Shown: positions 15,919 to 50,813, counted from the first letter of the stretch. The stretch is 64,000 nt of DNA from Bacillota bacterium (GCA_039799785.1 JBDLRZ010000078.1:2973-66972), one strand, 5' to 3'. The notes: generated by a model not told the origin, from the letters alone. Translations and numbers: made by a program.

Positions 15919-16643
15919 ATCGCCACGGCAATATTATCATTACCACCATTTGCATTCGCTAAATTAATAAGTGAGTCGACTTTTTGTTGTGGGGTATCTT
16001 TTGAACGAATAATACTGGATAATTCGCCATCCGTTAAATTGTTATATAAACCGTCACTGCAAACCAAAATCGTTTGGCCATGGTAAGGAACAATTTTTAC
16101 ATCATATGAAACGGAAGTATTAAGACCCAGAGCATTGAGTAATACGTGGCGTTGCGGGTGATTGGCCTTTTGAGCTTCGGTAATCTTACCTTGACGGAAT
16201 AAGTATTCTACATAGGTTTGATCTTCGGTTGCCTGCGTCAATTGTCCATCTTCAAATAAGTAGACTCGTGAGTCACCGATGTTTAGAATAATTAGATCTT
16301 TATTAACGATTAATGCGATGACTAAAGTTGTTCCCATTTCTTTGAGAGAGGAACTTTTTTGAGCTTCTTGATAAATAGAACGGTTGGCTTGCACCACTTG
16401 TTGTCTTAACCAAAGGGTTGCAGTTTTAGACGTTAATAGACCGAACGTATTTTTGAATCCTTTCATCAAGGATTGCATCGCTAATCGACTTGCAAGATCA
16501 CCGCGAGCATGGCCACCCATGCCATCGGCAACACCAAGCAAAATATCTTGATGGCGATTGACCATCGCCACCACTTGATCTTCATTGGTTGTTCTGACTT
16601 TACCAATGTCGCTTTTAAATGCAAAACTACCGCGCTTCTTCAT
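15900..16643 (-). CDS. prpC: PP2C-family Ser/Thr phosphatase
   Basis: GVADGMGGH and DGLYN..D motifs; 247 aa. Confidence 0.85.
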   Translation of the reverse strand: MKKRGSFAFKSDIGKVRTTNEDQVVAMVNRHQDILLGVADGMGGHARGDLASRLAMQSLMKGFKNTFGLLTSKTATLWLRQQVVQANRSIYQEAQKSSSLKEMGTTLVIALIVNKDLIILNIGDSRVYLFEDGQLTQATEDQTYVEYLFRQGKITEAQKANHPQRHVLLNALGLNTSVSYDVKIVPYHGQTILVCSDGLYNNLTDGELSSIIRSKDTPQQKVDSLINLANANGGNDNIAVAIWESER

Positions 16644-34900: not shown

Positions 34901-36229
34901 ATCCGTCACTAATTGATATAAAACTGCAGGAATGACTTGTGATAAAAATGGAGATTCATCAAGGGTTTCCAACATCATGATTACTTCATCTTTTGCCTGA
35001 GCGGTAAACATTGAATTTAGAAGGGTTAATGTGTCTGTATTGCCTTCAAGAATTGGGGTTAAAACGCCAGAACGAATGACACCAGTGAAAATATCGCCAA
35101 GATATTGAAGTTCTTCTTCCCAAACCAAATCATCCAACGTAATTAAGTCGGAATCTAAATACGCAGAAACTTCATCTAAATTAAGTCCAATTGTAACTGC
35201 AATCGGTAGAATTTTCATGATTAACACTGATCCAGTTAATGATGTAATTAAATTATTCACAACATCTTCCGTGATTAATAAAGATGTGTCGATTGTACTA
35301 AATGTGCTATCCACTGCACCGCTACCAATGAGCGTTGCTGCAATATCTACAAATGAACCCAATTCATTCGCGAGTGTTAATCGATATGCATCTAAATCTT
35401 GTCCAGTGACATAATCCATTAATGCGGTGTCAATACTTAGACCATCATCCGTTAGCGACCAAGAAAATAAAGTTTGGGCAAAAGTTGAATCATTATAGGC
35501 ATTCACAAAAGACATGATTTCGTTATAAAGTTCACCATCAATTTGATCACCATACTCATCATCAAAATCTTTAAATGAACCGGTGATGGTGTTAACCAAG
35601 GATGTAAAAGGTGAAAGAAACATCGTTAATACCAACACCATTTTTAATGCTCCCGCTAAAGCACCAAAAAGTCTCATTTTTGCCTTTTTTCTAAGGTTTC
35701 TTGGAATTAAAAAGCGGAAAGGTATGAAGTAAAGGATGGCTGCAATGGTTTCACCAAGGAAGAATATGATGACTGCCAAGACGATGAAAACGAGATATCT
35801 TAAAATTACCAATGTTAAACCAATTATTAAATCTGCAATGGCAGGGGTGATAAAAAAACCGAACGCAAGCAGAGACTGCTCTAATATTTCATAAATCGTT
35901 TCATATGGGGTCGTAACAGCAACAATGATGGGTGCTCCATTTAAATTAAGTGAAATTGAACTAAAACCTGCGCTTGAAGCTAAACTTGAAATATCAAAGT
36001 CCATTGCAAAATCAACTATCTGCCGTGTAAATAAAACCGAAGCAATAACTAATCCACCAACAAAAAATAACCGAAAACCTTCTCGCCAAATGCCTCTTAA
36101 AAAACCTAAAATAAATCCTAATGCAACCATGCCAAAAATTCCATATAGGGCGTAATCTAAATACTGTGCAATCTGGCCTGGATCAATTCCAAAACTTAAA
36201 ATCGTTTGCATATTAAACCTCCAAGGCAT
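29000..36229 (-). CDS. Giant (2409 aa) cysteine-free, acidic, membrane-anchored repeat protein; putative surface protein of unknown function.
   Basis: Single uninterrupted ORF. N-terminal roughly 215 aa contains about 5 hydrophobic helices. The remaining roughly 2200 aa is D/E/N/S/T/G-rich with no Cys. At least 3.5 tandem roughly 210-aa repeats (TLDTFIYD...NNFG...DDW...GEI...DIDFxNFGGDA...LLLSMNxST...IGNLFGN...GLTMSDANTN...LLNKMHDS.VFNSFK). Confidence 0.8.
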   Translation of the reverse strand: MPWRFNMQTILSFGIDPGQIAQYLDYALYGIFGMVALGFILGFLRGIWREGFRLFFVGGLVIASVLFTRQIVDFAMDFDISSLASSAGFSSISLNLNGAPIIVAVTTPYETIYEILEQSLLAFGFFITPAIADLIIGLTLVILRYLVFIVLAVIIFFLGETIAAILYFIPFRFLIPRNLRKKAKMRLFGALAGALKMVLVLTMFLSPFTSLVNTITGSFKDFDDEYGDQIDGELYNEIMSFVNAYNDSTFAQTLFSWSLTDDGLSIDTALMDYVTGQDLDAYRLTLANELGSFVDIAATLIGSGAVDSTFSTIDTSLLITEDVVNNLITSLTGSVLIMKILPIAVTIGLNLDEVSAYLDSDLITLDDLVWEEELQYLGDIFTGVIRSGVLTPILEGNTDTLTLLNSMFTAQAKDEVIMMLETLDESPFLSQVIPAVLYQLVTDEVEAGGPAGGIGLSTFLPTEWSEYESISFGSELSLIYELVYELNEGVDGLLDVVLPMNQDQVPFGRKAVDEPTPTLIDLLKDHFDLFVEILIGEVDEDGLPINNDPTTGKAINRRSLLDSDLIVNGLPSIVEDLLLPTLTSVAGAEFDDTELNELISDFNAGTSGDIRIDYKDEFGGIFSILGAVLGNETLISLIQPEPGQTLDILALLEDGEFRLGLKADLIPSLDRSQIILTVVPGILESTLTGAGFDDFLSLISLTTADLNFDFESLSRELTIVVDMMGYAFNVLDASSDLLNQFPTIAYDLIGLLDNIYYSDIINLNPDTNNKTTNFNQIIKGIFSLVEGIGIEETDIDTGFNRVGPSGLENGWTTTFIDTNGNDKLDELDTISFRGENFHLINFLKTALESGLLDISGDLFAALEDLTTGSEDIDDPEVATLYKIFAYADRSEIIAAAFGGILDNLFGSTGGLLDPDLGTSFRNVTSWTEEGSNLMYLVKQLTNFADGLENIDFLNSDVTMIEELLQGLAASQIFIKPNGDYVFPDFLLDQLTGIADLASYFEDPSPYQSTWDDNPADNFTIVTEDFYAISNQTSTRANWYGVKTMITDINNDPILDVNGDIQYEYVGGELENIVGFIAELQSVSITDLTSGTGLNGQTISDVLLALNNASSLRVLVFNVYDSIFGGSNFDIGSLSLSQTNTFVFLDLNQAGRAQQIQATADLLDTISDMGLDGGGAFDIANFDESTILTVGDLLTILHDAALFNSFKLGRSRTNGDLTVFEQAYQFLLTTATLDTFIYDGLTEVQTEAALYQDMTSLDNNFGTETPDDWDGIDGEIQRFVDIMVAFVNTGIDFTNFGGDAIGDLLNTEVGLGKVEDLLLSMNESTIISPAIGNLFGNVFGSDAFNIGGLTMSDANTNFFNQEPLKVNRATEISLILDIYWDINSIGITGGAAFSADLIDPVLFDALLNKMHDSNVFNSFKSGNSYLLDDLTIFEQTVRMILNTSTLDTFIYDEPINANRLLLLQDDIADLENNFGNGLTDDDWTGNNGEINQIIGILESFKETDIDFANFGGDAISDLLSTGPGLAKVENLLLSMNNSTLVAPSIGNLFGNIFDSDSFNINGLTMSDANTNYFNVESSKIDRGQEISQILDIYSDINAIGLTGGTAFTSELINPVLFNDLLNKMHDSYVFNSFKTGNSYANNNLTIFEQTVRMIINTSTLDTFVFDGESNTNRLNYLQDDISVIPNNFAVSINPDSWKGSTGEISKIISILEAFKDLDLDFASFSGAGSSDTLSNLIDTPVGLAKIENLLLSMNNSTIVYPAIPNLFSNMLEGGDFSSVGVDFTLANFRYRGTRNDPNNLSVGDQYMPYDNAEISAILSIFSDVKVVGNRAYGSIKDLSDQAIDDMANLVRDLHDSQVFHLTGPSTADADDLTIFEQMMAKMFKDTGMASLAYDAARLADAVYGNANAKADALVLNYVTLFPTNNSTHLTDNWLDDENVGEINAFFRIFKELKVALPNLGNASSIDAGALSPSSIGRIMSVLNYSSLTADAVKKMVKDAFSSINFGTYTENNETYELTPVQFLSADINVMNYSTLPGTVISSGLIDGLLNSFYDQITEEYISISGGFNVSNFLADGGSLYPLVNLLSNSQIFGNNATKILNPDATNTGLTPFNVTTIGSFKTRSLTFYNFLNTASVSKYFDYLTTLASDKELKVIRVEEIFSGDFDEVFEASRLDQFIGVISNFTSLSDASSLDQYSSEMRSLIDLTYMATGQTIIDRAFMVSELSAGFFTDIFKGEYAIVEDTNAIFFGDANNISKQLNFYDLNQDGNTDFELLNPIEAIGLEGSLEFLSAIKGVSGTPNSSDITAMKAALIKMGSRISLNVTGGPYPTATNYAGWSNTYLSKVGQLFYAARIVTNSGFDGLSALIVTVTTPNPFTNPSGILTTLSQEPYELNFVFEIEGEKIEYAFNA
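30880..33200 (-). repeat. In-frame coding tandem repeats, period about 630-650 bp, at least 3.5 copies, inside the giant gene (approximate boundaries).
   Basis: Repeated protein blocks. Plus-strand shadow ORFs 30963, 31539 and 32166 share similar peptides (for example ASPPKLAKSI / ASPPKLVKSI) at about 630-650-bp offsets, showing nucleotide-level repetition. Confidence 0.7.
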
Positions 36230-36292: not shown

Positions 36293-37060
36293 ATGTTAAT
36301 ACAGTCTAATCAAAATGAGCTTATATCAAGAAAACATTCGTTGGCACTTTTTTTTCTAGGCTGGCTAGGTTTATGGATATTTGCACTCATATTTGCGATT
36401 CTTATTCCAATCATTGCACCATGGTTTTTAACTCAAAGCGATGCAACTTTATTTCTAGAAAGTCCATTCTTTTTCCAACTCATTAATTTTTTAACTTATC
36501 TTTTCATCTTTTTGATTGGCCTAACGATATTATTACCTTATATAGGACGTTCATTTTTACCTGCAATACAATCTTCAAAATGGCTATTAGGATTACCGTT
36601 TACCTTTGTGATTCTTTTAAGTTCTTATGCACTCATCACTGTTTATGATTATCTTGGAATTGTCTTGGAAGATAATCAAAATCAAAGTGCGATTGTAACC
36701 CTTGTTCAAGATTCACCCATTATTTCACTGATTACATTTGGCTTTTTAGGCCCCATCGTTGAGGAATGGACTTATCGATTAGGTATTTTTAAGTACCTAA
36801 AACAGCGGAATAATCTACTAGCATACTTGGTAACTTTGACCATTTTTGGATTTATCCATTTTGATTTTACGGCAACTAATTTAGTCAATGAACTGTTAAA
36901 TTTACCGATTTATTTGATTGCCGGAGCTTGGTTTTGCTTCCTTTATGATAAATTTGGACTACAAGTCGCATTATCAACTCATATCATGAATAACGTATTC
37001 TCAGTCTTAGCGATTATATTAGAGGCGAATTTTATAAGTTCGTCAGGTTCATTGGTATGA
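36293..37060 (+). CDS. CPBP-family intramembrane metalloprotease (CAAX protease / Abi family)
   Basis: GPIVEEWTYRLGIF (EExxxR motif) and FGFIHF (FxxxH) signatures; 255 aa polytopic. Confidence 0.75.
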   Translation: MLIQSNQNELISRKHSLALFFLGWLGLWIFALIFAILIPIIAPWFLTQSDATLFLESPFFFQLINFLTYLFIFLIGLTILLPYIGRSFLPAIQSSKWLLGLPFTFVILLSSYALITVYDYLGIVLEDNQNQSAIVTLVQDSPIISLITFGFLGPIVEEWTYRLGIFKYLKQRNNLLAYLVTLTIFGFIHFDFTATNLVNELLNLPIYLIAGAWFCFLYDKFGLQVALSTHIMNNVFSVLAIILEANFISSSGSLV

Positions 37061-37914
37061 ATAACCCAAGAAGTTTTAGTGCTTATCAACTGAAATGGTT
37101 AGCAATTATGACGATGACAATCGATCACTTTGGAGTATTGGTTTTATTACCTTTTGCTCAAACTGAAAGCATTGCTACCCTTTACCTCATTGCAAGATTA
37201 ATTGGTCGACTTGCTTTTCCGTTATTTGGTTTTATGATCGCTGAAGGTATTTATCGTTCAAAAAAACCAATTCAATATATCGCTCGAATTGCGCTGATGG
37301 GATTATTTATTGGCATAGCCATGTTCTTATTAGGTGAATTTGGCATCCAAACTTTATCAGGTAACATTTTTATTGATTTAACCATGGCTGCACTCGCTAT
37401 GTATTTACTCAAACAACAACATGTGCTCATTCGCTTTTTGGCATTGATACCGATTTTTTATGTAATGATAACCAGTTTTACCAATCAATTTCCAAATTAC
37501 TTAAGTGCAGATTATGGCTTTTATGGATTGGTGATGATGATATTATTTTTCCTTTCTTATCAAAAATTGCCAACCTTTTTTTATCAATTGAACCCATTTA
37601 AATTCTCCTCAACGGAATTTACCATTGAACAAAAACGATATCAAATGGCGAGTGTCATTTTCATCCTCATGCATATACTTTGGTATATAATTAGTCTTGT
37701 TTTGAATGATGGATTGAATCTTTCAGGACCGATTGTTTCGTATATCAATCGATTTGTTGGTGCCCAAACCTATGCCGTGTTCGCTGCCTATTTTATTTAT
37801 CACTATCGAGGGGTCAAAGGTTCAACTCCAAAGTGGTTCCAAGTCTTCACATACTTATACTATCCATTACATTTTGTTGCCCTATACGCGATTTATTATC
37901 TTGTCAGTTTATAA
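37057..37914 (+). CDS. TraX-family membrane protein
   Basis: N-terminal LKWLAIMTMTIDHFG motif typical of TraX family; polytopic; 285 aa; 4-nt overlap with the CPBP gene. Confidence 0.6.
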   Translation: MNNPRSFSAYQLKWLAIMTMTIDHFGVLVLLPFAQTESIATLYLIARLIGRLAFPLFGFMIAEGIYRSKKPIQYIARIALMGLFIGIAMFLLGEFGIQTLSGNIFIDLTMAALAMYLLKQQHVLIRFLALIPIFYVMITSFTNQFPNYLSADYGFYGLVMMILFFLSYQKLPTFFYQLNPFKFSSTEFTIEQKRYQMASVIFILMHILWYIISLVLNDGLNLSGPIVSYINRFVGAQTYAVFAAYFIYHYRGVKGSTPKWFQVFTYLYYPLHFVALYAIYYLVSL

Positions 37915-38432: not shown

Positions 38433-39047
38433 ATGAATTACGAAATTATTTTAGCAACAAACAACGAAGCTAAAATTGTTGAAATAAAGAGTTTTTTTAA
38501 AGACTATACCGTAACATTTTTAACCTTAGACGATGTTAAATTAAAGTTAAAACCAAAGGAAACAGGTAGAACTTTTTTAGAAAACGCTCTCCTTAAAGCG
38601 AAGGCTGTAAGTAAGCATGTGAATAAAACGGTTGTTGCGGACGATTCGGGTTTACAAATTGATGCCCTCCATGGTTTTCCAGGTGTCTATTCATCACGCT
38701 GGTTAGAAGACAAACCATACGAAGAAAAAAATAAAGAAATTTTACGATTGATGAACGTACATAAAAATAGAAAAGCCCAATTTACCAGTGCCTTTGTCAT
38801 CTTATATCCACATCAAGAAATGCGCTTCTTTGTTGGCACTACCATTGGAAAAATAACCCGAGAAATTGATCAAAATCAAAATGGATTCGGTTATGACCCT
38901 ATTTTTTATAGTGATGAACTGTTAAAAACCTTTTCCCAAGCTACCATTGAGGAAAAAAATAAAGTGTCCCATCGTGGTAAGGCCTCAGCGAAGTTACTCC
39001 AGTGTTTGTTAGATAAACGTTTAATTACAAAAATTAAATCAAGATGA
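38433..39047 (+). CDS. rdgB: Non-canonical purine NTP pyrophosphatase (RdgB/HAM1, dITP/XTPase)
   Basis: N-terminal ILATNNEAK and FGYDPIF motifs; 204 aa; TGA stop overlaps the next ATG (ATGA). Confidence 0.85.
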   Translation: MNYEIILATNNEAKIVEIKSFFKDYTVTFLTLDDVKLKLKPKETGRTFLENALLKAKAVSKHVNKTVVADDSGLQIDALHGFPGVYSSRWLEDKPYEEKNKEILRLMNVHKNRKAQFTSAFVILYPHQEMRFFVGTTIGKITREIDQNQNGFGYDPIFYSDELLKTFSQATIEEKNKVSHRGKASAKLLQCLLDKRLITKIKSR

Positions 39048-40330
39048 AGAATCGAACGACGCAATGGTTTAGAATCGATAATGCGGGAAAACTTTTTCCA
39101 ATTATTACTGAAACTAGAAGATCTTCCTATTTTCGAATGAGTGTCATGCTAAAGGAAACGGTTGACCCAGTCGTCCTACAAAAAGCTACTGAAAAAACGT
39201 TATTTCGATTCCCAAATTTTAACACCCGATTACAAAGGGGCCTCTTTTGGAACTATTTAGAAAATCAGTCCAAAGCATTTAAGGTTTTACCTGATCCTAA
39301 TACATTTGGATCGAATAGTAGACCCTTTGATAGCTCAAAACATTTAATTGAAGTTTATTACCATCGTAACCGAATTGCCATTGAAGTTTTCCATGCAATC
39401 ACGGATGGCCGTGGAGGGATGGAATTCTTAAAAACACTTACTCTAGCTTACTTAAGAGAAAAAGGTTATGCAGTCGAATCTGAGGGCATCATTTTTGATG
39501 CCAATGATCAAGTTACACAGGCTGAACTTGAGGATAGTTTTGCCACGAAGGTAACCAAAGGTAAGAGCATTTGGATGCCAAGTAATAAAGCTTACCACCT
39601 TAAAGGCACATACTTCGAACATAATGGTCATTATCTAACGCATGTACATTTAAATACAGAAAATTGTATTGCGATTGCAAGGCAATTTCAAACTACGGTT
39701 ACAGGTCTTTTTGCGACTATTTTAATTTTAGGGCTCATCAAAAAACAGGAAAGTGAAAATCCCAAAAAGCGAAAACCAATTATCCTTTCCATTCCAGTCG
39801 ACATGAGAAAATATCTTCCTTCCAAAACAATGAAAAACTTTGTAATGACGATCAATATTGGAAAAGTATTTTCACCTCAAGCTACTTTTCAAGACGTTCT
39901 CCACGAGGTCAATTTACAATTAAAAGAGGGTCAAAAAATTGAAATATTAGCACCTCAAATTCGTGCCAATATGAAAGCTGAAAGAATGCTTTTGTTGAGA
40001 TTTGTTCCTTTATTTATCAAAAGATGGATTGTGAAAAGTGTCTTCAATCGTGTCGGTGAACCTGCACTAAGTTTAACGATGTCAAACCTTGGAAAAATTG
40101 AAATGCCTTTGACTACCCAACAATATATAGAGCATTTTGAATTTATGATCTGCTCAACACCAATTGTGCCGATAAACTTAGGTGTTGCATCTTTTAAGGA
40201 CCAACTTGTCCTTTCATTTTCTAGAATTATCGATGATCGAACATTTCTAAACTTTTTCATCCAATACCTTGTAAATGAACTTAAACTTGAGGTTTTTGTC
40301 TCTGGAAATCGTTGGGAGGAACAAGATTAA
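39044..40330 (+). CDS. Acyltransferase with condensation-domain-type HxxxDG motif (WS/DGAT, PapA5, alcohol-acetyltransferase-like superfamily)
   Basis: HAITDGRGG catalytic-type motif at about residue 120, 428 aa soluble protein. Translationally coupled on both sides (ATGA with rdgB; TAATG with the downstream zinc-ribbon membrane gene). Confidence 0.55.
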   Translation: MKNRTTQWFRIDNAGKLFPIITETRRSSYFRMSVMLKETVDPVVLQKATEKTLFRFPNFNTRLQRGLFWNYLENQSKAFKVLPDPNTFGSNSRPFDSSKHLIEVYYHRNRIAIEVFHAITDGRGGMEFLKTLTLAYLREKGYAVESEGIIFDANDQVTQAELEDSFATKVTKGKSIWMPSNKAYHLKGTYFEHNGHYLTHVHLNTENCIAIARQFQTTVTGLFATILILGLIKKQESENPKKRKPIILSIPVDMRKYLPSKTMKNFVMTINIGKVFSPQATFQDVLHEVNLQLKEGQKIEILAPQIRANMKAERMLLLRFVPLFIKRWIVKSVFNRVGEPALSLTMSNLGKIEMPLTTQQYIEHFEFMICSTPIVPINLGVASFKDQLVLSFSRIIDDRTFLNFFIQYLVNELKLEVFVSGNRWEEQD

Positions 40331-41016
40331 TGTCTTCTTGTAAACGATGCCGGATACGCGTCGATGAAAGCTTAACGCACTGCCCAGTTTGTGGTAGTTT
40401 TCTTCAACATGTTGAATCAAAAGATCTAGAAAAATTATACCCTTCACCGAATTATGCTCAAATTGAAAAGCAAACAGCAAACCAAATACATGCTTTTTTT
40501 GCCTTTCCTCTTCTACTTGCATTATTATTAACGCTTTTGATTGATTTAGCCCTTATTGCAAATGAATTAGGCACCACGTTCATGATGACCTTTATTGTTT
40601 TCTATGTTTGGGTTTTAATCTATAAAACGATTTACAATCGCCAAGGGATTGGTTATACCATTCTTTGGCAATTATCAAGTTTAAGTATCGGTACCATCAT
40701 TATTGCTTTCGTTGCCACCCAAACCCTTGATACTTGGCCATTGCAATACGTTGTTCCAATCTTGATATCGTTAAGTAACCTGTTATTCTTTATCATCACG
40801 ACGGTAAAAAGAAAAACCGATGTGATTTTGTTTCAAATGTTGATCACGAGTTTAATAGGTTTCGTTCAATTTTCTTTAATTTATTGGCTAATTGGCACCG
40901 ACATCATGGTTCCTTCATTAATCGCTGGTATCACATCGATCATCAACGTTACATCTTTACTTACGTATCTAAGAAAAAAGTTTTTAGATTATCTGCAACG
41001 TTGGCTTCATATATAA
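40330..41016 (+). CDS. Zinc-ribbon (C4) plus polytopic membrane protein; start MSSCKRC at the TAATG overlap. The ORF track gives 40312.
   Basis: CKRCRIRVDESLTHCPVCGS N-terminal Cys4 ribbon, then about 5-6 TM helices; 228 aa. Confidence 0.5.
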   Translation: MSSCKRCRIRVDESLTHCPVCGSFLQHVESKDLEKLYPSPNYAQIEKQTANQIHAFFAFPLLLALLLTLLIDLALIANELGTTFMMTFIVFYVWVLIYKTIYNRQGIGYTILWQLSSLSIGTIIIAFVATQTLDTWPLQYVVPILISLSNLLFFIITTVKRKTDVILFQMLITSLIGFVQFSLIYWLIGTDIMVPSLIAGITSIINVTSLLTYLRKKFLDYLQRWLHI

Positions 41017-41046
41017 AAAAAACCATTACCGGTTGCAATGGTTTTC
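41013..41046. terminator. Bidirectional terminator between the zinc-ribbon membrane gene (+) and eno (-).
   Basis: aaccatt-accggttgc-aatggtt hairpin flanked by an A-run (41014-41022) and a T-run (41042-41045). Confidence 0.5.
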
Positions 41047-41066: not shown

Positions 41067-42386
<1,320 letters not shown>

Positions 42387-42433: not shown

Positions 42434-43894
42434 TTACTGAACTTTTATTTTTTTCGATTTTCTAGTTAAAAAGTAGTGATAAATTGAAAAAATCAGTACC
42501 AAAATAACCAAAACAACGATCAAGGACACCCAGCCTTGTGATACGATTCCGACAAAAAGAAGCAATGGAAAACCTAATGGGATTGCCATTGAAGATCCAT
42601 AGACAATATCATTTGCTGCGGGGGTTTCAAAATAAGGGTCTTTCTCCCTTAATAAAGCGATACCAGTTGAAGCGGTGCCAGTCATGGTTCCATAAAAGAC
42701 CAACCAAGCTTCGTGTGTGTAATGCGGGTAAACGATTTTGGTAAGGTACCCTAGATAGTTATATGTGATGAAACCGCCACCGATGACCAAGACCAGTAAG
42801 CTGACTAAAAAGCCCGGATCTCCGACGAGAGTGATATCAATCGCCATAATGGACGCAATCATCATAATGTCAAAGGCAAAACCTGCAATACGGTTAAGTA
42901 GAAAATCGTTGGTATAAATTCTTTGCATCCATTTGGCCCTTAACAAACCACGCGTAATTACTTTATAGAGTAGGGCAATAAACACGACGATAATAAAATT
43001 AAATCCATAAAGTAAGGGTCTAAGGTTGTTTATTAAAAATGCAACACCACTATTTAAAATGAGTTGTTCTAATATGAAGATTACCAACCAGGAAATACCA
43101 TAAACAAAGAAAATAATGGCAATTTGAATTGTTAATTTATCCACGGCATCTACAAGGGGAATCTGTCCATTACCTTCTAAAACCGTTGACTCTTCTTTAC
43201 TTTCCATGGAAGTTTCTTGGCTGGTTTTTAATAAACCTAATCGTTTAAGTTTTCTTAAGTAAATGACGCCACCTAATGAAGCGGCTAAAAATCCGATGGA
43301 GGCAATTGATAAGCCAAAGTCGCGCCCAAAACTGAAGCCTACGTTTTGAAAAACTGCTCCAACATTCAATGCTTGTCCAGGTCCTTGGCCATAACCCATT
43401 GGTAGCAAGAAACCTACATAAGCAGGTATGTTGATAAAGATGAAACTTAAGACAATGGTGACTAATAATCCAAAAATACCTTGGATTAGGTAAGAGTTCA
43501 CAATGACCATACCACTTTTGACAGCAAGAGGTTTGTTGCGTATTCGACCTTCATTAAGTCGATCGATACCTTTTAATGTTAATGCTCCGAAACCAATTGC
43601 AATCGCATGATAGGTGAACGCACTTAATGTGTTTGCATCAAATAAGCTCGTGGAGGCGATTTCAAGATTTGCAATCGCAATGTCACTTCCATTGAATAAA
43701 TATTTAATCAATAACCCCAAAAATCCACCAATGACTGCCACAGGTAAAAGTGAAGCTTTTAACCATTTAATTTTTCGTCTAAGGATATTCGCCAATAACA
43801 AAACGGACATTATAAGGGCAAACTGAATAATACTACTCCAATAAAAATTAAAGTCCCAAAAAGGAAGCGGCTGGACGTTTGATAAAACCATCAT
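42434..43894 (-). CDS. GltS-like (ESS family) sodium:solute symporter-type membrane protein
   Basis: About 12 TM; motifs PMGYGQGPGQAL and FYGTMTGTASTGIALL resemble the re-entrant loop motifs SGGHGTGAA and GLGATPTAIANM of E. coli GltS; 486 aa. Overlaps the end of the upstream acyltransferase gene by 47 nt. Confidence 0.5.
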   Translation of the reverse strand: MMVLSNVQPLPFWDFNFYWSSIIQFALIMSVLLLANILRRKIKWLKASLLPVAVIGGFLGLLIKYLFNGSDIAIANLEIASTSLFDANTLSAFTYHAIAIGFGALTLKGIDRLNEGRIRNKPLAVKSGMVIVNSYLIQGIFGLLVTIVLSFIFINIPAYVGFLLPMGYGQGPGQALNVGAVFQNVGFSFGRDFGLSIASIGFLAASLGGVIYLRKLKRLGLLKTSQETSMESKEESTVLEGNGQIPLVDAVDKLTIQIAIIFFVYGISWLVIFILEQLILNSGVAFLINNLRPLLYGFNFIIVVFIALLYKVITRGLLRAKWMQRIYTNDFLLNRIAGFAFDIMMIASIMAIDITLVGDPGFLVSLLVLVIGGGFITYNYLGYLTKIVYPHYTHEAWLVFYGTMTGTASTGIALLREKDPYFETPAANDIVYGSSMAIPLGFPLLLFVGIVSQGWVSLIVVLVILVLIFSIYHYFLTRKSKKIKVQ

Positions 43895-45074
43895 TGGTTT
43901 CCTCCTTTAAAGCTTGCTTGTGCCACTTGATAACATTGAGAAGACCATAAGGTGAGTAACCTCTTGGTAAACGAATCAATAACATAGGACCATCCGAAGG
44001 ATAAAGAAGCAATTTGGTTCTAACTTGAATCGCTTCAGCAAAAATTTTATCGAAAGTGTAAGATTTTTCTTCCCCTTTTAAGGTTAATTTTACACCTTCC
44101 TTAGAAATTTTGATGATACCTTTTTGGAATTTGCTTCTGCGGAATGGATTACCTTTCCAATAAGAAACCTCACAAGGATATTCAATCTTTAGGTTTTTGT
44201 TTTTGACGAACATTTGCTCATGAAATCTTTGAAGATTAGCATGATCATGTTCGATAAGATTTTGCGATACGTGATTGATGGTTAATAAACCTTTTTCGTC
44301 ATACATAGCATCCAATGTGCATTCGCGGCAATACAGGTGACGGCCTTGACTGTAGGTCGAAAATAGGCCTTGACATGAAGGGCAGGTAAAGATGAGTTTA
44401 TGAAGTCCTTCTGCCAAGTGTTTACCATGGTATTCACCTAAGGGCTTTTCATAAGCAGAAATATGTAAAGTATCTTTAACGAATGTTTCTAAAGTTTCGG
44501 AATCCATTTGGTTAAATTCCAATGGACTTAGAGTTGAAATTTCATGCATCGTAGAGGGACCAAATTTTCGAAAATAAGACCATCTTGGTGCCGAAAAATA
44601 TAAACCTTCAATTTTAATGAATTTAACGGGGACTCCTAAAAATTTTATCAATCTTCCCATGCCAGTCGGTATGGGTGAAGGACCACCATTCATAGTGGCA
44701 TTGCCTTCTGGAAATATACAAATATTCCCACCTTCCTCGATAACAGATTTCATTCGTTTTACCAAGGCAAGATCTGCAACGGATTTACTCTTCGGTATCG
44801 GATTGAAAAAAGTCTTTAAAAACCAACTTCCCTTTCCAGAATTAAGAAGTTGATCACTTGCAACAAAGTACAAAGGTGCATCGAATAACATATCAAGAAA
44901 GATGATGTCAAATTCAGCGGTGTGATTAGCAAGAATTAAATATGGACCACTTTTTTTTATTGGAATGCGTTTAGCAGAAAAACGATAATAAAGTCGAAAG
45001 ATGGGTCCAAAAATAAAACGAAAGATTGATAAAAAGAAACCATGGTGCCAATACGTGTATCGTCTTGAAGCCAT
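43848..45074 (-). CDS. PlsC-family (lysophospholipid/glycerolipid) acyltransferase with C-terminal roughly 180-aa extension containing a Cys4 zinc ribbon
   Basis: HX4D motif ILANHTAEFD, FPEGNAT (FPEG block), C-terminal CPSCQGL...x13...CRECTL; 408 aa compared with roughly 200-260 aa for a typical PlsC. Confidence 0.65.
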   Translation of the reverse strand: MASRRYTYWHHGFFLSIFRFIFGPIFRLYYRFSAKRIPIKKSGPYLILANHTAEFDIIFLDMLFDAPLYFVASDQLLNSGKGSWFLKTFFNPIPKSKSVADLALVKRMKSVIEEGGNICIFPEGNATMNGGPSPIPTGMGRLIKFLGVPVKFIKIEGLYFSAPRWSYFRKFGPSTMHEISTLSPLEFNQMDSETLETFVKDTLHISAYEKPLGEYHGKHLAEGLHKLIFTCPSCQGLFSTYSQGRHLYCRECTLDAMYDEKGLLTINHVSQNLIEHDHANLQRFHEQMFVKNKNLKIEYPCEVSYWKGNPFRRSKFQKGIIKISKEGVKLTLKGEEKSYTFDKIFAEAIQVRTKLLLYPSDGPMLLIRLPRGYSPYGLLNVIKWHKQALKEETNDGFIKRPAASFLGL

Positions 45075-46202
45075 CTATTGAATATCTTTCACAAAGGCAC
45101 TTCTGGTTTTATGATGACGATGTTCAAAGTTTTTCCATAAGGATTGAACGTGTTGATTGTTTTCTAATTCTGGTCCTGTTTCAGCAATTTGTATACCATT
45201 TTTAACAGCATTTTTAATAGCCTCAGTAAACACCAGGGCCAATACTCCTGAATTCTTAAGAGCAGGTTCAACCGCTACCAAAAGCATATCGAGGACTTTA
45301 CTTCGCTTTAATTGGGAAAAGAAATCGATAAAACCAAATGGAAACAAATGACCTTTTGATCGTTTTAATGCGTCGACTGGTGAAGGAATCATTAATCCAA
45401 ACGCCACAAGTTTTTCATTTGCATCGCACACGAGTTGTATATAATCTAAATTCACAAGCGGAATATATTGTTTTGCTAGCATATCCATTAAATCTTCCTT
45501 TACTGGAACATAACCATATAAGTGATCGTACGTTTTATTCATGAGTTGAAAAATTTGTTTAATGTATGGTGCAAGGGCGGTGTATCTTTTAGATTTTACT
45601 TTGACTAAATGCAATTGATTTCTTTCAAGGACACGTTGAGATATTTTCTCTAAAATCGGAGGTACTTCTTTTGGAACTTTGATTTGATATTCATTCCAAG
45701 TCGCGTCAACTTTAAAGCCATATCGTTCAAAATGCTTAACATAATATGCATCGGTATAAAACGTAACAAACATATTTTTTTCATTGAATCCAAAGGTTAA
45801 TAAACCTTCTTTATCCTGATCAGAATAACCTAGCGGCCCTGCTAATTGAGTCATACCTAAGGCTTTACCATAATCATTAACGGCAGTCATTAATGCATCG
45901 AATACTTCAACATCATCAATAAAATCAATCCGATTAAAGCGGACCCGTTTTTCATGATATTTCTCATTGGAATAGCGATTAATAATGGCAGCAACTCTTC
46001 CAACGATAACGCCATCTTTCAGTGCCAAGAAAAGTCGAAAATCACAATATTCACTTGCAGGGTTATATTTTGCATCTAAATTCTTCATTTCATCTTCAAA
46101 AATATAAGGAGTAAAGTAAGGATTATTTCGATACAGTTTGGTTGGAAAATCAATAAATGCTTTTAAGTCTTTTTTGGTTGAGACGACCTTTATGTTAATC
46201 AT
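45075..46202 (-). CDS. GNAT-fold-like acyl/aminoacyl N-acyltransferase candidate, possibly double GNAT (compare OlsB, GlsB, FemAB, aaPGS-type folds); function unknown.
   Basis: 375-aa soluble protein, first gene of a three-gene coupled operon (TAG-ATG junction with the PlsC-like gene). Sequence features such as LKDGVIVGRVAAII are suggestive only; no definitive motif recognised. Confidence 0.4.
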   Translation of the reverse strand: MINIKVVSTKKDLKAFIDFPTKLYRNNPYFTPYIFEDEMKNLDAKYNPASEYCDFRLFLALKDGVIVGRVAAIINRYSNEKYHEKRVRFNRIDFIDDVEVFDALMTAVNDYGKALGMTQLAGPLGYSDQDKEGLLTFGFNEKNMFVTFYTDAYYVKHFERYGFKVDATWNEYQIKVPKEVPPILEKISQRVLERNQLHLVKVKSKRYTALAPYIKQIFQLMNKTYDHLYGYVPVKEDLMDMLAKQYIPLVNLDYIQLVCDANEKLVAFGLMIPSPVDALKRSKGHLFPFGFIDFFSQLKRSKVLDMLLVAVEPALKNSGVLALVFTEAIKNAVKNGIQIAETGPELENNQHVQSLWKNFEHRHHKTRSAFVKDIQ

Positions 46203-46251
46203 GTAAAGCTCCGTTAATATTATCTTAATACTTTATGGTAGTTTCTCAAAA

Positions 46252-46283
46252 TAAAAAAAGACTCACAGGAATACTATGAGTCA
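46252..46283 (-). terminator. Rho-independent terminator downstream of tRNA-Ser(GCU), minus strand.
   Basis: Minus-strand RNA: GACUCAUAGUAUUCCUGUGAGUC hairpin (6-bp stem, positions 46259-46282) followed by UUUUUUU (forward A-run 46252-46258). Confidence 0.5.
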
Positions 46284-46376
46284 TGGCGGAGTAGGAGGGA
46301 TTTGAACCCTCGCACCGGGTTTCCCCGATCTAACGGTTTAGCAAACCGTCCCCTTCAGCCTCTTGGGTACTACTCC
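46284..46376 (-). tRNA. tRNA-Ser (anticodon GCU), type II with long variable arm
   Basis: Reverse complement GGAGTAGTACCCAAGAGGCTGAAGGGGACGGTTTGCTAAACCGT...GGGTTCAAATCCCTCCTACTCCGCCA; anticodon loop TTGCTAA; CCA encoded. Confidence 0.85.
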
Positions 46377-46422: not shown

Positions 46423-47859
46423 TTAGTAGGCTCTGGCAAAATAAACGATACGTTTAGCGGGTTTGCCAGTAATCGCACACAAAGGCTTTAATCCAATTTG
46501 GTCAAAAGGAATAACTCGAGCAGTTGCTTGAGCTTTTTCTTTGATAATTTTTTCAACTTCTTCCGTGTCGTCAACAGAAACTTTCACATAACCACCGAAT
46601 TGATTAAGAATAGAAATCATCTCATCTAGGGAATTGGCTTCACGAATATTGTTAGCAAGATGTTGCTTGGCATGCTGTAAAAGTTCTTGTTGTATCAGTT
46701 CCAAGGTAAGTTTGGATTCTTGTACGAGGTCATTAAACTTGATGATTTTTTTAATTTTATCATTGCGTTTTACCATCACCACTTGTTGTTGTTCAAGGTC
46801 ACGAGGACCTAATTCAATTCTTAAAGGAATACCTTTCATTTCAGCTTCAGCATATTTCCAACCTGGTGAATTATCAGTTTCATCAAGCATGACTCTGATA
46901 CCGGATTGTTTTAAGGTATCAAATAAGACCTTGGCTTGACTTAATACACCTGGTTTTTGAGGCATAATGGGTACAATGACAATTTGAATTGGCGCAACGC
47001 GTGGCGGTAAAATCAAACCATTGTCATCACCATGCACCATGATTAAACTTCCAATTAATCGAGTTGAAACACCCCATGAAGTTTGGTGAACTGGTTGTAA
47101 TTGATTTTGGCGATTTTGAAATTGAATGCCAAATGCTTCAGCAAAACCTGTCCCAAAATAATGGCTTGTTCCAGATTGCAAGGATTTACCATCATGCATC
47201 AGCGCTTCCACAGCATAGGTTTCCTTGGCACCTGCAAATTTTTCTTTTTCAGTTTTTCTGCCCGTTAAAAATGGAATCGCCAATAATTCTTCCCCAAGGG
47301 TTTGGTATATTTTTAACATTTGCAAGGTTTCAAATCTTGCTTCTTGTTCTGTTTCGTGAGCAGTATGACCTTCTTGCCATAAGAATTCAGCCCCTCTTAA
47401 GAAAGGTCGAGTCGTTTTTTCCCATCTTACAACCGAACACCATTGATTATATTTCTTTGGTAAATCTCGATAAGAATTAATGATTTTTGCATAATGTTCA
47501 CAAAAGAGAACTTCTGAGGTTGGGCGAATAATTAAAGGATCTTCTAATTTTTCTTTTCCACCTAGGGTTGCAATTAATGTTTCAGGTGCAAATCCTTCAA
47601 CATGTTCTTTTTCTTTGTTAAATAAACTTTGTGGTATCACCATAGGCATATAGACATTTTCATGTCCTGTATCTTTAAATTTTTGATCGAGATATTTTTG
47701 GATTTGTTCCCAAATTGCGTATCCATACGGCCGATAAATAATGAATCCTTTAATTGATGAATAGTCCATTAATTCAGCTTTTTTGCAAACATCTGTATAC
47801 CATTGTGCAAAATCAGATTGTCTAGAGGTGATCGCCTCATTTTTAATTTGTTTTTCCAT
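46423..47859 (-). CDS. proS: Prolyl-tRNA synthetase (short, archaeal/eukaryote-like type)
   Basis: Class II aaRS motifs, 478 aa without bacterial-type insertion domain; C-terminal zinc-binding region. Confidence 0.9.
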   Translation of the reverse strand: MEKQIKNEAITSRQSDFAQWYTDVCKKAELMDYSSIKGFIIYRPYGYAIWEQIQKYLDQKFKDTGHENVYMPMVIPQSLFNKEKEHVEGFAPETLIATLGGKEKLEDPLIIRPTSEVLFCEHYAKIINSYRDLPKKYNQWCSVVRWEKTTRPFLRGAEFLWQEGHTAHETEQEARFETLQMLKIYQTLGEELLAIPFLTGRKTEKEKFAGAKETYAVEALMHDGKSLQSGTSHYFGTGFAEAFGIQFQNRQNQLQPVHQTSWGVSTRLIGSLIMVHGDDNGLILPPRVAPIQIVIVPIMPQKPGVLSQAKVLFDTLKQSGIRVMLDETDNSPGWKYAEAEMKGIPLRIELGPRDLEQQQVVMVKRNDKIKKIIKFNDLVQESKLTLELIQQELLQHAKQHLANNIREANSLDEMISILNQFGGYVKVSVDDTEEVEKIIKEKAQATARVIPFDQIGLKPLCAITGKPAKRIVYFARAY

Positions 47860-49588
47860 AATATTGCTCCTGTTTGTTAATGAGTGCCTTTACTTTATTC
47901 ACGGTGCGTTTACTTGGATGGTCTGGATTCGTCTGATAACCCATAATCCAATCTGCACTCAAGATTTTAACATGCTTTAGGGGAAGAAATTCTAAGCTCG
48001 CTTCTGACAATAAATCCGAGAGAATAAATGGTTTATTAAACCTAGAAAAATTTTGGAAAATAAGTTTTAATTGGATAGAGGACTTTTGAGTATTTTCAAC
48101 ATGAATAACACGTTTATAATCTAAGTAATAGAAATCAAAATATTGATAAATTTCATCAGGTAAATTAGTTGTCATGTCATCAATTGACAAGGCAAATCGA
48201 ATGCCAAATCGGTAAAATGGTTCTGCCCAAGCCTTTAGAGAAATTTCGGTTGTAGCTAATTCTTTTACTTCACTCTCATCAAGTAAAATCGTAATGTTTT
48301 TAGCGTTTGATAAGTTTTTGATGTCATTTAAAAAATCAAAAGGTTTAATGACCATAGAGAAAGGAACCAATATGCGTTGACTTAATGAAGGCAATACCAC
48401 TTGTCCGATTAAATATAAATAACGTCGATAGAAATCTTTTGTATAGCTCATCATTTCATTTGCATCTTGAAGTAATTCTAATGTGGTAAGTGGCGTAGAC
48501 ATGAGGGGTTGGATAATCACTTGTTGACCAAATACAGTCATATCTTCTTGATTCATTAACGGACGAAAATTTAATGAAAATTTTAGTTGATGATATAAAT
48601 CTTCTGCAAACATCGTCTCATTCGATTGAAGGGTTTGTACAATTGGTTGATTGGTTTCGTAAGGAAGAATAGACATTTTACGTTTAATCATAAGTTGGTT
48701 GAGCTCTTTACTCTTGCGCATCAGGGTTCGGAAATCATTTGGAAAATGTTTGTGTTCAATGATTGCCATATTAAACCTAATTAAAGATTCTAAAGCATTA
48801 ACTTCAACATATTGAGAAACAACTTGATAGAGACCTTGTGCAGTTTGCATATATTCATGCGTTTCAGCTGCTTTTGTTACCAAGACAAGTATGTCATTAG
48901 CAGAGTCAATTAATAAAATATTGGGAGATAAATATGGTACGAGTTTTTCCTTGATTTGTGAAAGATAAAAGTATTTGAATTGTTCATCCAAACCAGAGCG
49001 AGGAAACATCATAAATATTGAAATAAAAACTCCATTTTTACTTGGCAACTTTTTAATAATGTCAAGAGCCTGTTGTGAACTAATAACCATTGATTTCAAC
49101 GTTGCTTTTTTGGGATTGGGTTTAAGGTATTTTAATCCATATTGATGTAAATGGATGGTTTGTTTTACTTCATCAATTTTGACAACTTCAAAAATAAGTT
49201 GGCGATAATTTTTTCTTTTTAAAGTTTTTGTAGTCAATATCCAACTTGTATCCAATTTAGAGGTTAAAAGGTTTTCCCACCACTTATATATTTTTTCGGA
49301 TTCTAGTGCAGAAAATTTTTTAAGAAATTGACTCAACGCAATAATCTTTTCTTTACCAGGATGCTTTGGATCAAATTCATAAACAGCGTCAAGTTTTAAG
49401 TTAATTCGATAAACCAAGTAATGGTGAATACGTTGTTGAATGGCTAAACGATGCTTGTTCTGACTTCTTTGAAAGTATATTAGTACAATAAAAATGATTA
49501 AAATTGTGAGTAACACAAAGATAGCAACTGCAATAAATAGAGTTGGATTTTCAAAAATTGGTAACCAAGTAAATATCTTGATTTTCAT
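47843..49588 (-). CDS. Membrane-anchored protein with degenerate EAL-like C-terminal domain and possible degenerate GGDEF-like middle region
   Basis: N-terminal TM (IAVAIFVLLTILIIFIVLIYF). C-terminal FALSIDDMTT (compare DDFGTG), FDFYYLDYKRV (compare KIDKSF) and ADWIMGYQ (compare QGY) are EAL-like, but the EAL glutamate context is missing; 581 aa. Confidence 0.4.
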   Translation of the reverse strand: MKIKIFTWLPIFENPTLFIAVAIFVLLTILIIFIVLIYFQRSQNKHRLAIQQRIHHYLVYRINLKLDAVYEFDPKHPGKEKIIALSQFLKKFSALESEKIYKWWENLLTSKLDTSWILTTKTLKRKNYRQLIFEVVKIDEVKQTIHLHQYGLKYLKPNPKKATLKSMVISSQQALDIIKKLPSKNGVFISIFMMFPRSGLDEQFKYFYLSQIKEKLVPYLSPNILLIDSANDILVLVTKAAETHEYMQTAQGLYQVVSQYVEVNALESLIRFNMAIIEHKHFPNDFRTLMRKSKELNQLMIKRKMSILPYETNQPIVQTLQSNETMFAEDLYHQLKFSLNFRPLMNQEDMTVFGQQVIIQPLMSTPLTTLELLQDANEMMSYTKDFYRRYLYLIGQVVLPSLSQRILVPFSMVIKPFDFLNDIKNLSNAKNITILLDESEVKELATTEISLKAWAEPFYRFGIRFALSIDDMTTNLPDEIYQYFDFYYLDYKRVIHVENTQKSSIQLKLIFQNFSRFNKPFILSDLLSEASLEFLPLKHVKILSADWIMGYQTNPDHPSKRTVNKVKALINKQEQYYGKTN

Positions 49589-49668
49589 TTATCAAATTAT
49601 ACCTTTCTCTTCACAACCTAACAATCCTTTTTCGATTCAACCATACGATGAAATGAGGGTTAAAATCG

Positions 49669-49676
49669 TGTATAAT
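49669..49676 (+). promoter_or_regulatory. Extended -10 promoter element (TGTATAAT) for tRNA-Ser(CGA) and the GDPD gene
   Basis: TGnTATAAT ending 9 nt upstream of the tRNA 5' end. Confidence 0.4.
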
Positions 49677-49685
49677 TTTTCTCAC

Positions 49686-49776
49686 GGAGAAATACCCAAG
49701 TGGCTGAAGGGGTCAGTTTCGAAAACTGATAGGAGGCGCAAGTCTCGCGAGGGTTCAAATCCCTCTTTCTCCGCCA
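49686..49776 (+). tRNA. tRNA-Ser (anticodon CGA), type II
   Basis: GGAGAAATACCCAAGTGGCTGAAGGGGTCAGTTTCGAAAACTGA...GGGTTCAAATCCCTCTTTCTCCGCCA; anticodon loop TTCGAAA; CCA encoded. Confidence 0.85.
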
Positions 49777-49787
49777 AGGAAATTAAA

Positions 49788-50813
49788 ATGAAAAAAATAA
49801 AAAAAAGACAAGTTTTTGGATCAATTATCTTAGTATTTGGATTAATCACGGTTTTTCCAAGACCTCAGAATTTTGTGGGTGAAAATCCTTTAAGGGTTGA
49901 TAAAGATGAATTACCTCTTTTAATCGCCCATGGTGGTGGAAACTTGGAATTTCCAGATAATACGCTTGAGGCCTATTACCATGCTTATAGTCTTAATGAA
50001 TCCGTCATGCTTGAGACCGATATTAACCTAACGAAAGATGGGGTCGTTATCTTGTCTCATGATCGTTCATTAGATCAAAAAACCAATCTTACTTACGCAG
50101 ACATCATTGATACCAATTACGCAGATCTTGTTGATGATGAGATCGACTTTGGTTTTAACAATCCAATTTCAGGTGCAAATGGATATAACACTTCGAATAC
50201 ATTTAACAAATACACGAACTATTTAGGTCAAGAAGTTTCCCCGCTTGATATTGATTATCCAGAAGGAATTGAACCAAGGCACCCTACAAAATTTTTAGTT
50301 TCCACATTAGAGGAGCTCATCATCCAATTCCCAACTAATCTAATTAATGTTGAAATAAAGCAAACCGGTGAAGTAGGTTTAGAGGCTTTAACCAAAGTAA
50401 TCGAATTAATGGATGAATTGAGTGAAGAATACCAAACCTATCAAAGGATTATTCTTGCTAGTTTTCACCAAGAAGTTTATGAAGCATTGAATCAATTAAA
50501 ATCAACAACTCACAAACAATTAATGTTCTCTCCAGAATTTAATGGTGTACTTTCTTTTTTCATCATGCAAACAACATTTACAAGTGCTTTTTACACTGAG
50601 CCAGTTGCAGCATTTCAACTCCCTACGGAACAATTGGGCTTATCGTTGACAACTAAATTATTAATCAACACTGCCCACATGCATAATATTGCCGTGCATT
50701 ACTGGACCATCAATGATGAAGAAACCATGAGAGAATTAATTGAAAAAGGAGTCGATGGTATCATGACTGATCGACCCTCTTTGTTACAACAAGTCTTGGA
50801 CTCTTACCAATAA
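49788..50813 (+). CDS. Glycerophosphodiester phosphodiesterase with N-terminal signal/anchor; true start MKKIKKRQ at 49788. The ORF-track ORF 49494..50813 reads through the tRNA.
   Basis: GP-PDE motifs LIAHGGGNLEFPDNTLEAY and E..D; RBS AAGGA 8 nt upstream of ATG 49788. Confidence 0.8.
   Translation: MKKIKKRQVFGSIILVFGLITVFPRPQNFVGENPLRVDKDELPLLIAHGGGNLEFPDNTLEAYYHAYSLNESVMLETDINLTKDGVVILSHDRSLDQKTNLTYADIIDTNYADLVDDEIDFGFNNPISGANGYNTSNTFNKYTNYLGQEVSPLDIDYPEGIEPRHPTKFLVSTLEELIIQFPTNLINVEIKQTGEVGLEALTKVIELMDELSEEYQTYQRIILASFHQEVYEALNQLKSTTHKQLMFSPEFNGVLSFFIMQTTFTSAFYTEPVAAFQLPTEQLGLSLTTKLLINTAHMHNIAVHYWTINDEETMRELIEKGVDGIMTDRPSLLQQVLDSYQ

Follow-up and report, generated by a model that had tools for sequence, protein, structure and literature searches.

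What does a bacterial gene cluster do when it joins, end to end, a predicted N-acyltransferase, a PlsC-family O-acyltransferase, and a predicted membrane transporter? The question is raised by a 64,000-nucleotide stretch of DNA, called here the window, from a Bacillota bacterium (GCA_039799785.1, JBDLRZ010000078.1:2973-66972). Three consecutive open reading frames (ORFs) on its minus strand encode a 375-amino-acid protein (GNAT, 45075..46202), a 408-amino-acid acyltransferase (AT, 43848..45074), and a 486-amino-acid transporter (TR, 42434..43894). A preliminary description of the locus likened its layout to OlsB/OlsA-type aminolipid biosynthesis, with an N-acyltransferase and an O-acyltransferase acting in sequence and a transporter supplying the head-group amino acid. 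Comparison across genomes gives a different answer: the unit conserved across lineages is AT plus TR, and GNAT is a clade-specific, co-transcribed neighbor found in uncultured Bacilli.

A conserved acyltransferase–transporter pair

Contigs from one genome per GTDB species were scanned with a 14-sequence AT alignment. The scan returned 566 confirmed relatives, and the best 80 loci (given L numbers below) were analyzed. Their gene neighborhoods were compared by tblastn and ORF clustering, and 73 of them were evaluable for TR. The 80 loci come from uncultured Bacilli, Acholeplasmataceae, Izemoplasmatales, Clostridia (Christensenellales, Oscillospiraceae, Eubacteriaceae, and Lachnospiraceae), and Treponema/Spirochaetaceae.

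TR lies directly downstream of AT, on the same strand, in 63 of the 73 evaluable loci (57 complete ORFs and 6 cut by contig ends). The distance between the two genes ranges from -163 to +73 nucleotides, and most pairs overlap by 20-53 nucleotides. The pair spans two phyla, occurring in Bacilli, Clostridia, Izemoplasmatales, and Treponema/Spirochaetaceae. Approaching from the other side, look-ups anchored on TR found AT in the same cluster in three of three cases; two of these, Acholeplasma hippikon and a JGI contig, have AT upstream of TR. Clustering of the 80 loci for a third recurrent neighbor revealed none besides TR, barring the syntenic neighbors of one clade.

That clade is the one to which GNAT belongs. 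GNAT adjoins AT in 10 of the 80 loci (L015-L023 and L084), all from a single clade of Bacilli that also carries proS upstream, and GNAT is absent within 5 kb of AT in the remaining 70. Distant AT homologs, 27-38% identical, likewise have an overlapping TR and no GNAT. Conversely, GNAT orthologs at 59-61% identity (in an Erysipelotrichaceae lineage and in the 'Coprobacillus sp. CAG:826' lineage) are solitary and reside in unrelated contexts, and GNAT occurs without AT–TR in L001-L006. The preliminary description had suggested that conservation of the three-gene cluster be examined in related genomes; the triad proves to be confined to the one Bacilli clade, and AT–TR alone crosses lineages.

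Within its clade, the triad is durable. At least 12 species-level lineages retain it, and it persists even at 58-65% GNAT identity and with AT identity as low as 38-39%. One locus, L098, retains the triad though prs replaces proS upstream. Of the genes in the block, AT evolves fastest: the L015 AT is 79% identical to its window counterpart, versus 92-98% for prolyl-tRNA synthetase (ProRS), GNAT, TR, and enolase.

Two further arrangements of the pair were observed. In L102 (1..5401), genes for a TetR regulator, a MacB-type ABC ATPase, and an FtsX permease are inserted between AT and TR, giving the order AT-TetR-ABC-FtsX-TR. In the cultured Acholeplasma hippikon (L095, LR215050.1, 1614..8374), the order is a GGDEF protein, AT (403 amino acids), a Glt_symporter protein (463 amino acids, 32-nucleotide overlap), and an Abhydrolase_3 esterase, with a TMEM164-family protein nearby.

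Features of the acyltransferase and the transporter

AT has the hallmarks of the PF01553/PlsC-LPLAT superfamily: an HX4D motif (H51, D56), a PEG motif (P122-E123-G124), and a PlsC-type alpha/beta fold. Pfam assigns PF01553 with E 8e-14, and both motifs are invariant in 51 homologs, down to 17% identity. The protein is built from an N-terminal amphipathic two-helix anchor, the PlsC-fold catalytic domain, a zinc ribbon, and a PH-like domain. The ribbon is of the Cys4 type (C231, C234, C249, and C252; 44319..44384, minus strand), and all four cysteines are invariant in the same 51 family members, again down to 17% identity. The last domain is a PH/PTB/GRAM-like beta-sandwich followed by a C-terminal helix (amino acids ~295-392; 43899..44192, minus strand). 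PH/GRAM-like domains typically target membranes or lipids. Thus, the earlier view of AT as an extended PlsC-family enzyme, ~150 amino acids longer than PlsC and bearing a Cys4 ribbon, is borne out. A conserved tetrapeptide, F/L-L/I-G-L/I, closes most members of the ribbon-AT family; in the window AT it reads FLGL (amino acids 404-408), and it could be a docking motif.

Which acyltransferase does AT most resemble? Its best NCBIfam match is the Aas-type model PRK08633, at 53.5 bits, a match of the domain only (AT amino acids 16-161 on model positions 413-557) and far below the equivalog cut-off. The housekeeping PlsC model TIGR00530 (AGP_acyltrn) scores 41.7 bits against a cut-off of 102.95, and for the OlsA equivalog, whose cut-off is 300, the score is 12.7 bits. 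Across the family, the Aas model and the PlsC model are each matched by 42 of 51 members and OlsA by 3 of 51 (E<=1e-3), with Aas-type and PlsC models about equal in score. A PDB sequence search with AT retrieved TmPlsC alone (E 3e-4). These profile comparisons place AT in the PF01553 superfamily but outside the housekeeping PlsC equivalog. Housekeeping PlsC is a single-domain protein of ~245 amino acids; AT, in contrast, has 408 amino acids with the ribbon and PH-like extension, an obligate-looking pairing with a transporter, and a fast rate of evolution.

The AT family is large and uncharacterized: at E<=1e-30, the AT profile collects the representatives of 1,703 clusters built at 50% identity. 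A Pfam search for an AMP-binding domain in AT found none. Three homologs with N-terminal extensions (P0365, P0368, and P0455), examined as possible Rosetta-stone fusions, carry no recognizable domain in those extensions. A literature search for the AT architecture or for an AT–ESS pairing found no paper, and combining PlsC or acyltransferase with glutamate symporter, zinc ribbon, or PH domain returned nothing relevant.

TR is a polytopic membrane protein that is translationally coupled to AT: its ATG (43894) lies 47 nucleotides within the AT gene, and a GGAGG (43905-43901) is positioned 6 nucleotides before that ATG. The family of TR is visible only through its relatives. The window TR is unmatched in Pfam even at E<=10, a PDB sequence search with TR returned nothing, and BLAST against Escherichia coli GltS found nothing. 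Homologs that are 42-46% identical carry PF03616 (Glt_symporter), and sources label them ESS-family glutamate:Na+ symporters. Across the TR family, 5 of 23 members match PF03616 (best E 5e-11). By hhalign, the TR profile matches GltS colinearly but weakly across its N-terminal half (probability 10%, E 0.003), and a GxGxG-type loop aligns with GltS. Transitive homology of this kind suggests that TR is a divergent branch of the ESS/GltS superfamily, for which "GltS-like" is an acceptable label. GltS itself (ESS, PF03616) has 401 amino acids; TR, by comparison, has 486, lacks a direct Pfam or BLAST match, and falls in an AT-linked subfamily. The superfamily assignment made in the preliminary description therefore stands, remotely, but the designation of TR as an amino-acid symporter is not established.

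A candidate transporter-coupled lipid acylation module

What might an acyltransferase gain from a dedicated transporter? The hypothesis we favor, tentatively, is that AT and TR are the functional core of a transporter-coupled lipid acylation module that follows LplT–Aas-like logic and serves lipid salvage or remodeling. In outline, TR would deliver the molecule to be acylated to the cytoplasmic side of the membrane. This acceptor could be a lysolipid that TR flips inward from the outer leaflet, or else a small head-group compound based on glycerol, for example a glycerophosphodiester. AT would rest on the membrane via its N-terminal amphipathic helices, would possibly dock on TR through the ribbon/PH module, and would O-acylate the acceptor from acyl-ACP or acyl-CoA. 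In its own clade, GNAT may modify the same cargo; elsewhere, the module would need no GNAT. The earlier suggestion that TR imports a head-group amino acid survives in part: conservation of the pair strengthens the notion that TR feeds AT, but there is no evidence for an amino acid as the cargo.

The comparison that motivates the hypothesis is with LplT and Aas, a gram-negative system in which the transferase domain holds transporter and enzyme together in a physical complex (PMC11416262). There, as in AT–TR, the gene for a membrane transporter is operonically paired with, or fused to, that for an HX4D lysophospholipid-type O-acyltransferase, and the AT domain scores best on Aas-type NCBIfam models. 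The two systems also differ, and AT–TR would follow the shared logic with components that are unrelated or differently assembled. LplT belongs to the major facilitator superfamily (MFS) and TR to the ESS/GltS superfamily. Aas contains an acyl-ACP synthetase domain; AT lacks one but has the Cys4 ribbon and PH-like domain. Finally, LplT–Aas is gram-negative, whereas AT–TR occurs in Bacillota and Spirochaetota.

The acceptor need not be a lysolipid. A salvage route of the glycerophosphocholine (GPC) type is equally possible, by analogy, because the PlsC family includes enzymes whose acceptors are small polar derivatives of glycerol: SqdA is reported in a preprint to act on sulfoquinovosyl glycerol (bioRxiv 10.1101/2022.08.18.504050). 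A more specific version of the proposal, in which the ESS/GltS-superfamily protein is a lysolipid or lipid-precursor translocator in complex with the ribbon-PH AT, and in which the GNAT of the one clade adds an N-acyl or N-acetyl step, strikes us as rather doubtful.

Two kinds of neighborhood evidence bear on the role of the pair. The first is partner replacement. In L038, L049, and L077, which represent one Christensenella-type lineage and are the only loci with an MFS partner, the gene for an ATG22-like MFS transporter overlaps AT by 29-35 nucleotides and no ESS partner exists. This is a genuine exchange of partner that retains translational coupling. Two other candidate swaps, VTT/DedA in L050 and MFS_1 in L028, were rejected: L056 has the order AT-TR-VTT and L027 the order AT-TR-MFS. 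Because L056 and L027 keep TR in between, L050 and L028 are loci in which TR was lost and the third gene exposed.

The second kind of evidence is glycerolipid-related neighbors. L049 and L077 each have a glycerophosphodiester phosphodiesterase (GDPD) gene beside the AT–MFS pair, with an ABC permease and ATPase directly upstream of it in L077. L029 has an ORF starting 2 nucleotides after AT whose N-terminus, read by eye from sequence only, resembles glycerol kinase. The Abhydrolase_3 esterase follows the AT–TR pair in A. hippikon. In the window, a GDPD gene is located ~3.7 kb upstream, and synteny of GDPD-YitT beside proS-GNAT-AT-TR is kept in L100. Such neighbors are few in number, and their support for a salvage role is suggestive. 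The window GDPD ORF, as called mechanically (49494..50813, plus strand), contains a tRNA-Ser(cga) at 49686..49776; the true start must lie downstream, because of this tRNA inside the ORF, and the GDPD domain begins at amino acid 146.

Several points weigh against a salvage or remodeling module. The substrate, the acyl donor, and the direction of transport are inferred. Characterized ESS transporters carry small solutes such as glutamate, and no flipping of lipids is known for any of them. AT has no Aas-like acyl-ACP synthetase domain. Adjacency to GDPD is found in two independent lineages only, and the third genes of L050 and L028, exposed by loss of TR, are not true swaps. Lastly, the GNAT–AT junction stays tight within its clade even as AT diverges to 38% identity, which argues for some functional tie that a model built on AT and TR leaves unexplained.

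Transport in the opposite direction is the alternative that fares best, although we consider it improbable. By analogy to MprF, AT would synthesize, at the inner leaflet, an acylated lipid or acylated small molecule that the membrane protein would then export or flip outward. Fused or paired synthase–flippase systems exist, MprF being an example, and conservation of a gene pair says nothing about direction. The VTT/DedA-type and MFS third genes that follow the pair in L056 and L027 would suit such a scheme. The GDPD, esterase, ABC-importer, and glycerol-kinase-like neighbors, however, point to uptake and catabolic salvage, and characterized ESS members are importers.

GNAT and the aminolipid proposal

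If salvage or remodeling by AT and TR is the core function, what is GNAT doing beside them? The aminolipid proposal offers one answer: GNAT would N-acylate an amino acid imported by TR, and AT would add a second, O-linked acyl chain, as in an OlsB/OlsA-like pathway. We judge this unlikely, more so than reversed transport. Several points in its favor come from the layout of the locus. The three minus-strand ORFs, the TAG-ATG junction, and the 47-nucleotide overlap (43848-43894) are all present in the sequence as first described. Specifically, the GNAT/AT junction reads caaTAG followed at once by ATGgct (45077-45072), with the GNAT stop codon at 45075-45077 and the AT start at 45074; the three genes are translationally coupled. 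Tight junctions recur in relatives whose AT is 38-39% identical (GNAT–AT gaps of 0-6 nucleotides or short overlaps, and AT–TR overlaps), and tight coupling is therefore more than an accident of one genome. Maintenance of the triad and its 0-6-nucleotide GNAT–AT junctions in at least 12 lineages, even in the changed upstream context of L098, also speaks for the proposal, as does a CoA-type loop kept in the C-terminal domain of GNAT. Moreover, PlsC-family enzymes do act as OlsA (PMC12971839).

The boundaries of the transcription unit temper these arguments. Upstream of GNAT-AT-TR are proS and tRNA-Ser(gct) (46284..46376, minus strand). Directly after this tRNA is an intrinsic-terminator-like hairpin of 9 pairs, 4 of them GC, with a TTTTTTTATT T-run tail (46260..46282, minus strand). 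This element, which agrees with the position originally assigned to the unit downstream of a tRNA-Ser terminator, is its upstream boundary. The dedicated promoter that the preliminary description placed there has a counterpart in a promoter-like TTGAGA-16-TAAGAT (46222..46249, minus strand), a weak consensus match 20 nucleotides upstream of the GNAT start, but promoter-like matches in the region are not enriched (20 versus 17.6 +/- 4.3 in shuffled sequences). A dedicated promoter ahead of GNAT is accordingly no better than plausible. An Rfam search that covered the window and the sequence upstream of AT in 13 other loci turned up neither a riboswitch nor a T-box, and thus provides no clue to a ligand.

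Downstream, the unit may not end with TR. The gene for enolase (41067 to 42368 or 42374, minus strand) is co-directional, begins ~60 nucleotides beyond the TR stop (42434), and has its own ribosome-binding site. No terminator-like site was found between the TR stop and enolase; the next one on the minus strand comes after eno, at 41046..41018. Enolase is probably in the same transcript because no terminator intervenes, and what was described as a three-gene unit, although its genes are indeed coupled, may comprise four: GNAT-AT-TR-eno. Synteny of enolase with the block is also seen in L015-L022 and L100. Since enolase is probably co-transcribed, genes that share an operon in this compact genome do not necessarily share a pathway, and co-transcription is weak evidence for an aminolipid route.

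The properties of GNAT itself fit the aminolipid proposal poorly. In Pfam, the protein has only a sub-threshold match to Acetyltransf_1, and homologs that are 60% identical pass PF00583. No Acetyltransf_5 (PF13444) or OlsB-type match appears at E<=0.1 in Pfam or NCBIfam. For two homologs that are 60% identical, an OlsB-type match is absent even at E<=10, and generic Acetyltransf_1 is the sole hit. NCBIfam contains no model of any kind that GNAT matches, and PDB sequence searches with the protein and with its profile found no relative. An AlphaFold2 model built with 41 homologs (pLDDT 87.3, pTM 0.84) consists of two consecutive GNAT folds in one chain, in accord with the GNAT-like character first attributed to the protein. 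Foldseek places this model closest to tandem GNATs such as GlmA and MshD (TMq ~0.6), ahead of FemX (0.47) and the MprF L-PGS domain (0.40). Thus, as modeled, the 375-amino-acid protein is a tandem GNAT nearest to small-molecule N-acetyltransferases that use acetyl-CoA, an outcome that the preliminary description had named as speaking against its own proposal; the GNAT fold alone does not fix the substrate. In the C-terminal domain, a conserved K316-N-S-G319 loop of the CoA-pyrophosphate type, in which G319 is invariant, suggests one CoA site.

Like GNAT, the proteins GlmA (5KF1), MAB_4324 (7Q3A), ORF14 (2WPW), and MshD (1OZP) contain two GNAT folds per chain. The window protein differs from them in being only 9-13% identical, ~50 residues longer, and without a family assignment at the sequence level. 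An aminoacyl-tRNA transferase of the FemX/MprF type, an idea drawn from the neighboring proS and tRNA genes, was considered and rejected; the Fem and L-PGS scores (TMq 0.40-0.47) fall below the 0.6 of acetyl-CoA-dependent tandem GNATs.

How does the cluster compare with the established aminolipid systems? In OlsB/OlsA, GlsB/GlsA, and OlsF (PMC12971839), as here, an N-acyltransferase-superfamily gene is placed beside a PF01553 O-acyltransferase gene. Here, however, GNAT is a tandem rather than a single-domain protein and lacks the OlsB signature, AT falls below the OlsA equivalogs, and the linkage is restricted to one clade. For AT, the OlsA score (12.7 bits) is lower than those for PlsC (41.7) and Aas-type (53.5), and OlsA models are touched by only 3 of the 51 family members. 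The separations in both directions, AT–TR with no GNAT inside 5 kb (70 of 80 loci) and GNAT with no AT–TR (L001-L006), argue further against the aminolipid proposal. Tests for the sequence features that define the OlsBA, GlsBA, and OlsF systems were negative, and on these criteria the cluster does not belong to any of them. According to a 2026 review, no Bacillota aminolipids have been described (PMC12971839). In sum, the preliminary description is partly supported: its gene identities hold, and there is no evidence for aminolipid synthesis in this lineage.

Least credible is the absence of any functional coupling, with AT as the lineage's housekeeping PlsC and TR as an ordinary glutamate or amino-acid symporter adjoining it by chance: AT does possess all the PlsC catalytic motifs, no second PF01553-like ORF was found within the 64-kb window, and several sources name TR a glutamate:Na+ symporter, but overlapping adjacency in 63 of 73 loci from two phyla is not expected by chance, AT combines its sub-cut-off TIGR00530 score with ~220 extra conserved residues and evolves faster than ProRS, enolase, GNAT, and TR, one relative that carries the cluster also has another PF01553 gene at a distance of 4 kb, and the AT–TR module is present in Clostridia and Treponema, groups that possess canonical PlsC.

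Other features of the window

Beyond enolase, a second acyltransferase-like pair occupies 39044..41016, and ORFs of the same size are present at the matching position beyond eno in six relatives. Its first gene (39044..40330, plus strand) encodes a 428-amino-acid protein that weakly resembles PapA5/condensation domains and contains an HxxxDG motif (FHAITDGRGG). The second (40312..41016, plus strand), which overlaps the first by 19 nucleotides, encodes a 234-amino-acid protein with an N-terminal CxxC..CxxC ribbon and a DUF6320 membrane domain.

Farther away, a 2,409-amino-acid ORF (29000..36229, minus strand) matches no Pfam family at E<=1e-3; it may encode a giant protein of the cell surface or of adhesin-like type. 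A Rce1-like membrane protein of the CAAX protease family (36293..37060, plus strand) overlaps a TraX-family protein (37057..37914, plus strand). A 581-amino-acid protein (47843..49588, minus strand) has an N-terminal transmembrane segment and no Pfam or NCBIfam match. Its positional counterpart, upstream of proS in L007 and L008, has a weak EAL match, by which the window protein may be a degenerate c-di-GMP phosphodiesterase-like protein. Finally, a 301-amino-acid Ser/Thr kinase (15013..15918, minus strand), matched in its kinase domain only, adjoins a PP2C phosphatase (15900..16643, minus strand); both genes reside within a conserved priA...rsmB-rlmN-prpC-prkC-rsgA-rpe block.

Significance

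Little is established about the uptake and re-acylation of lysophospholipids or glycerophosphodiesters in gram-positive and wall-less bacteria. In streptococci, for example, the transporters and acyltransferases of the route from GPC and lysophosphatidylcholine were unidentified as of 2019 (PMC6805115). The AT–TR pair appears to be widespread and, apparently, undescribed. Its presence in the cultured A. hippikon and in a metagenome-assembled genome assigned to Treponema bryantii makes the hypothesis directly testable.

If the more specific version of the hypothesis is true, with TR as a lysolipid or lipid-precursor translocator in complex with AT, AT–TR would be an unrecognized counterpart of LplT–Aas in gram-positive bacteria and spirochetes. 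The pair would likewise be a candidate route by which wall-less and host- or sediment-associated Bacillota scavenge lyso-lipids or glycerophosphodiesters. Under the hypothesis in its general form, too, a branch of the GltS superfamily that is now annotated "sodium/glutamate symporter" would have a role other than the transport of amino acids.

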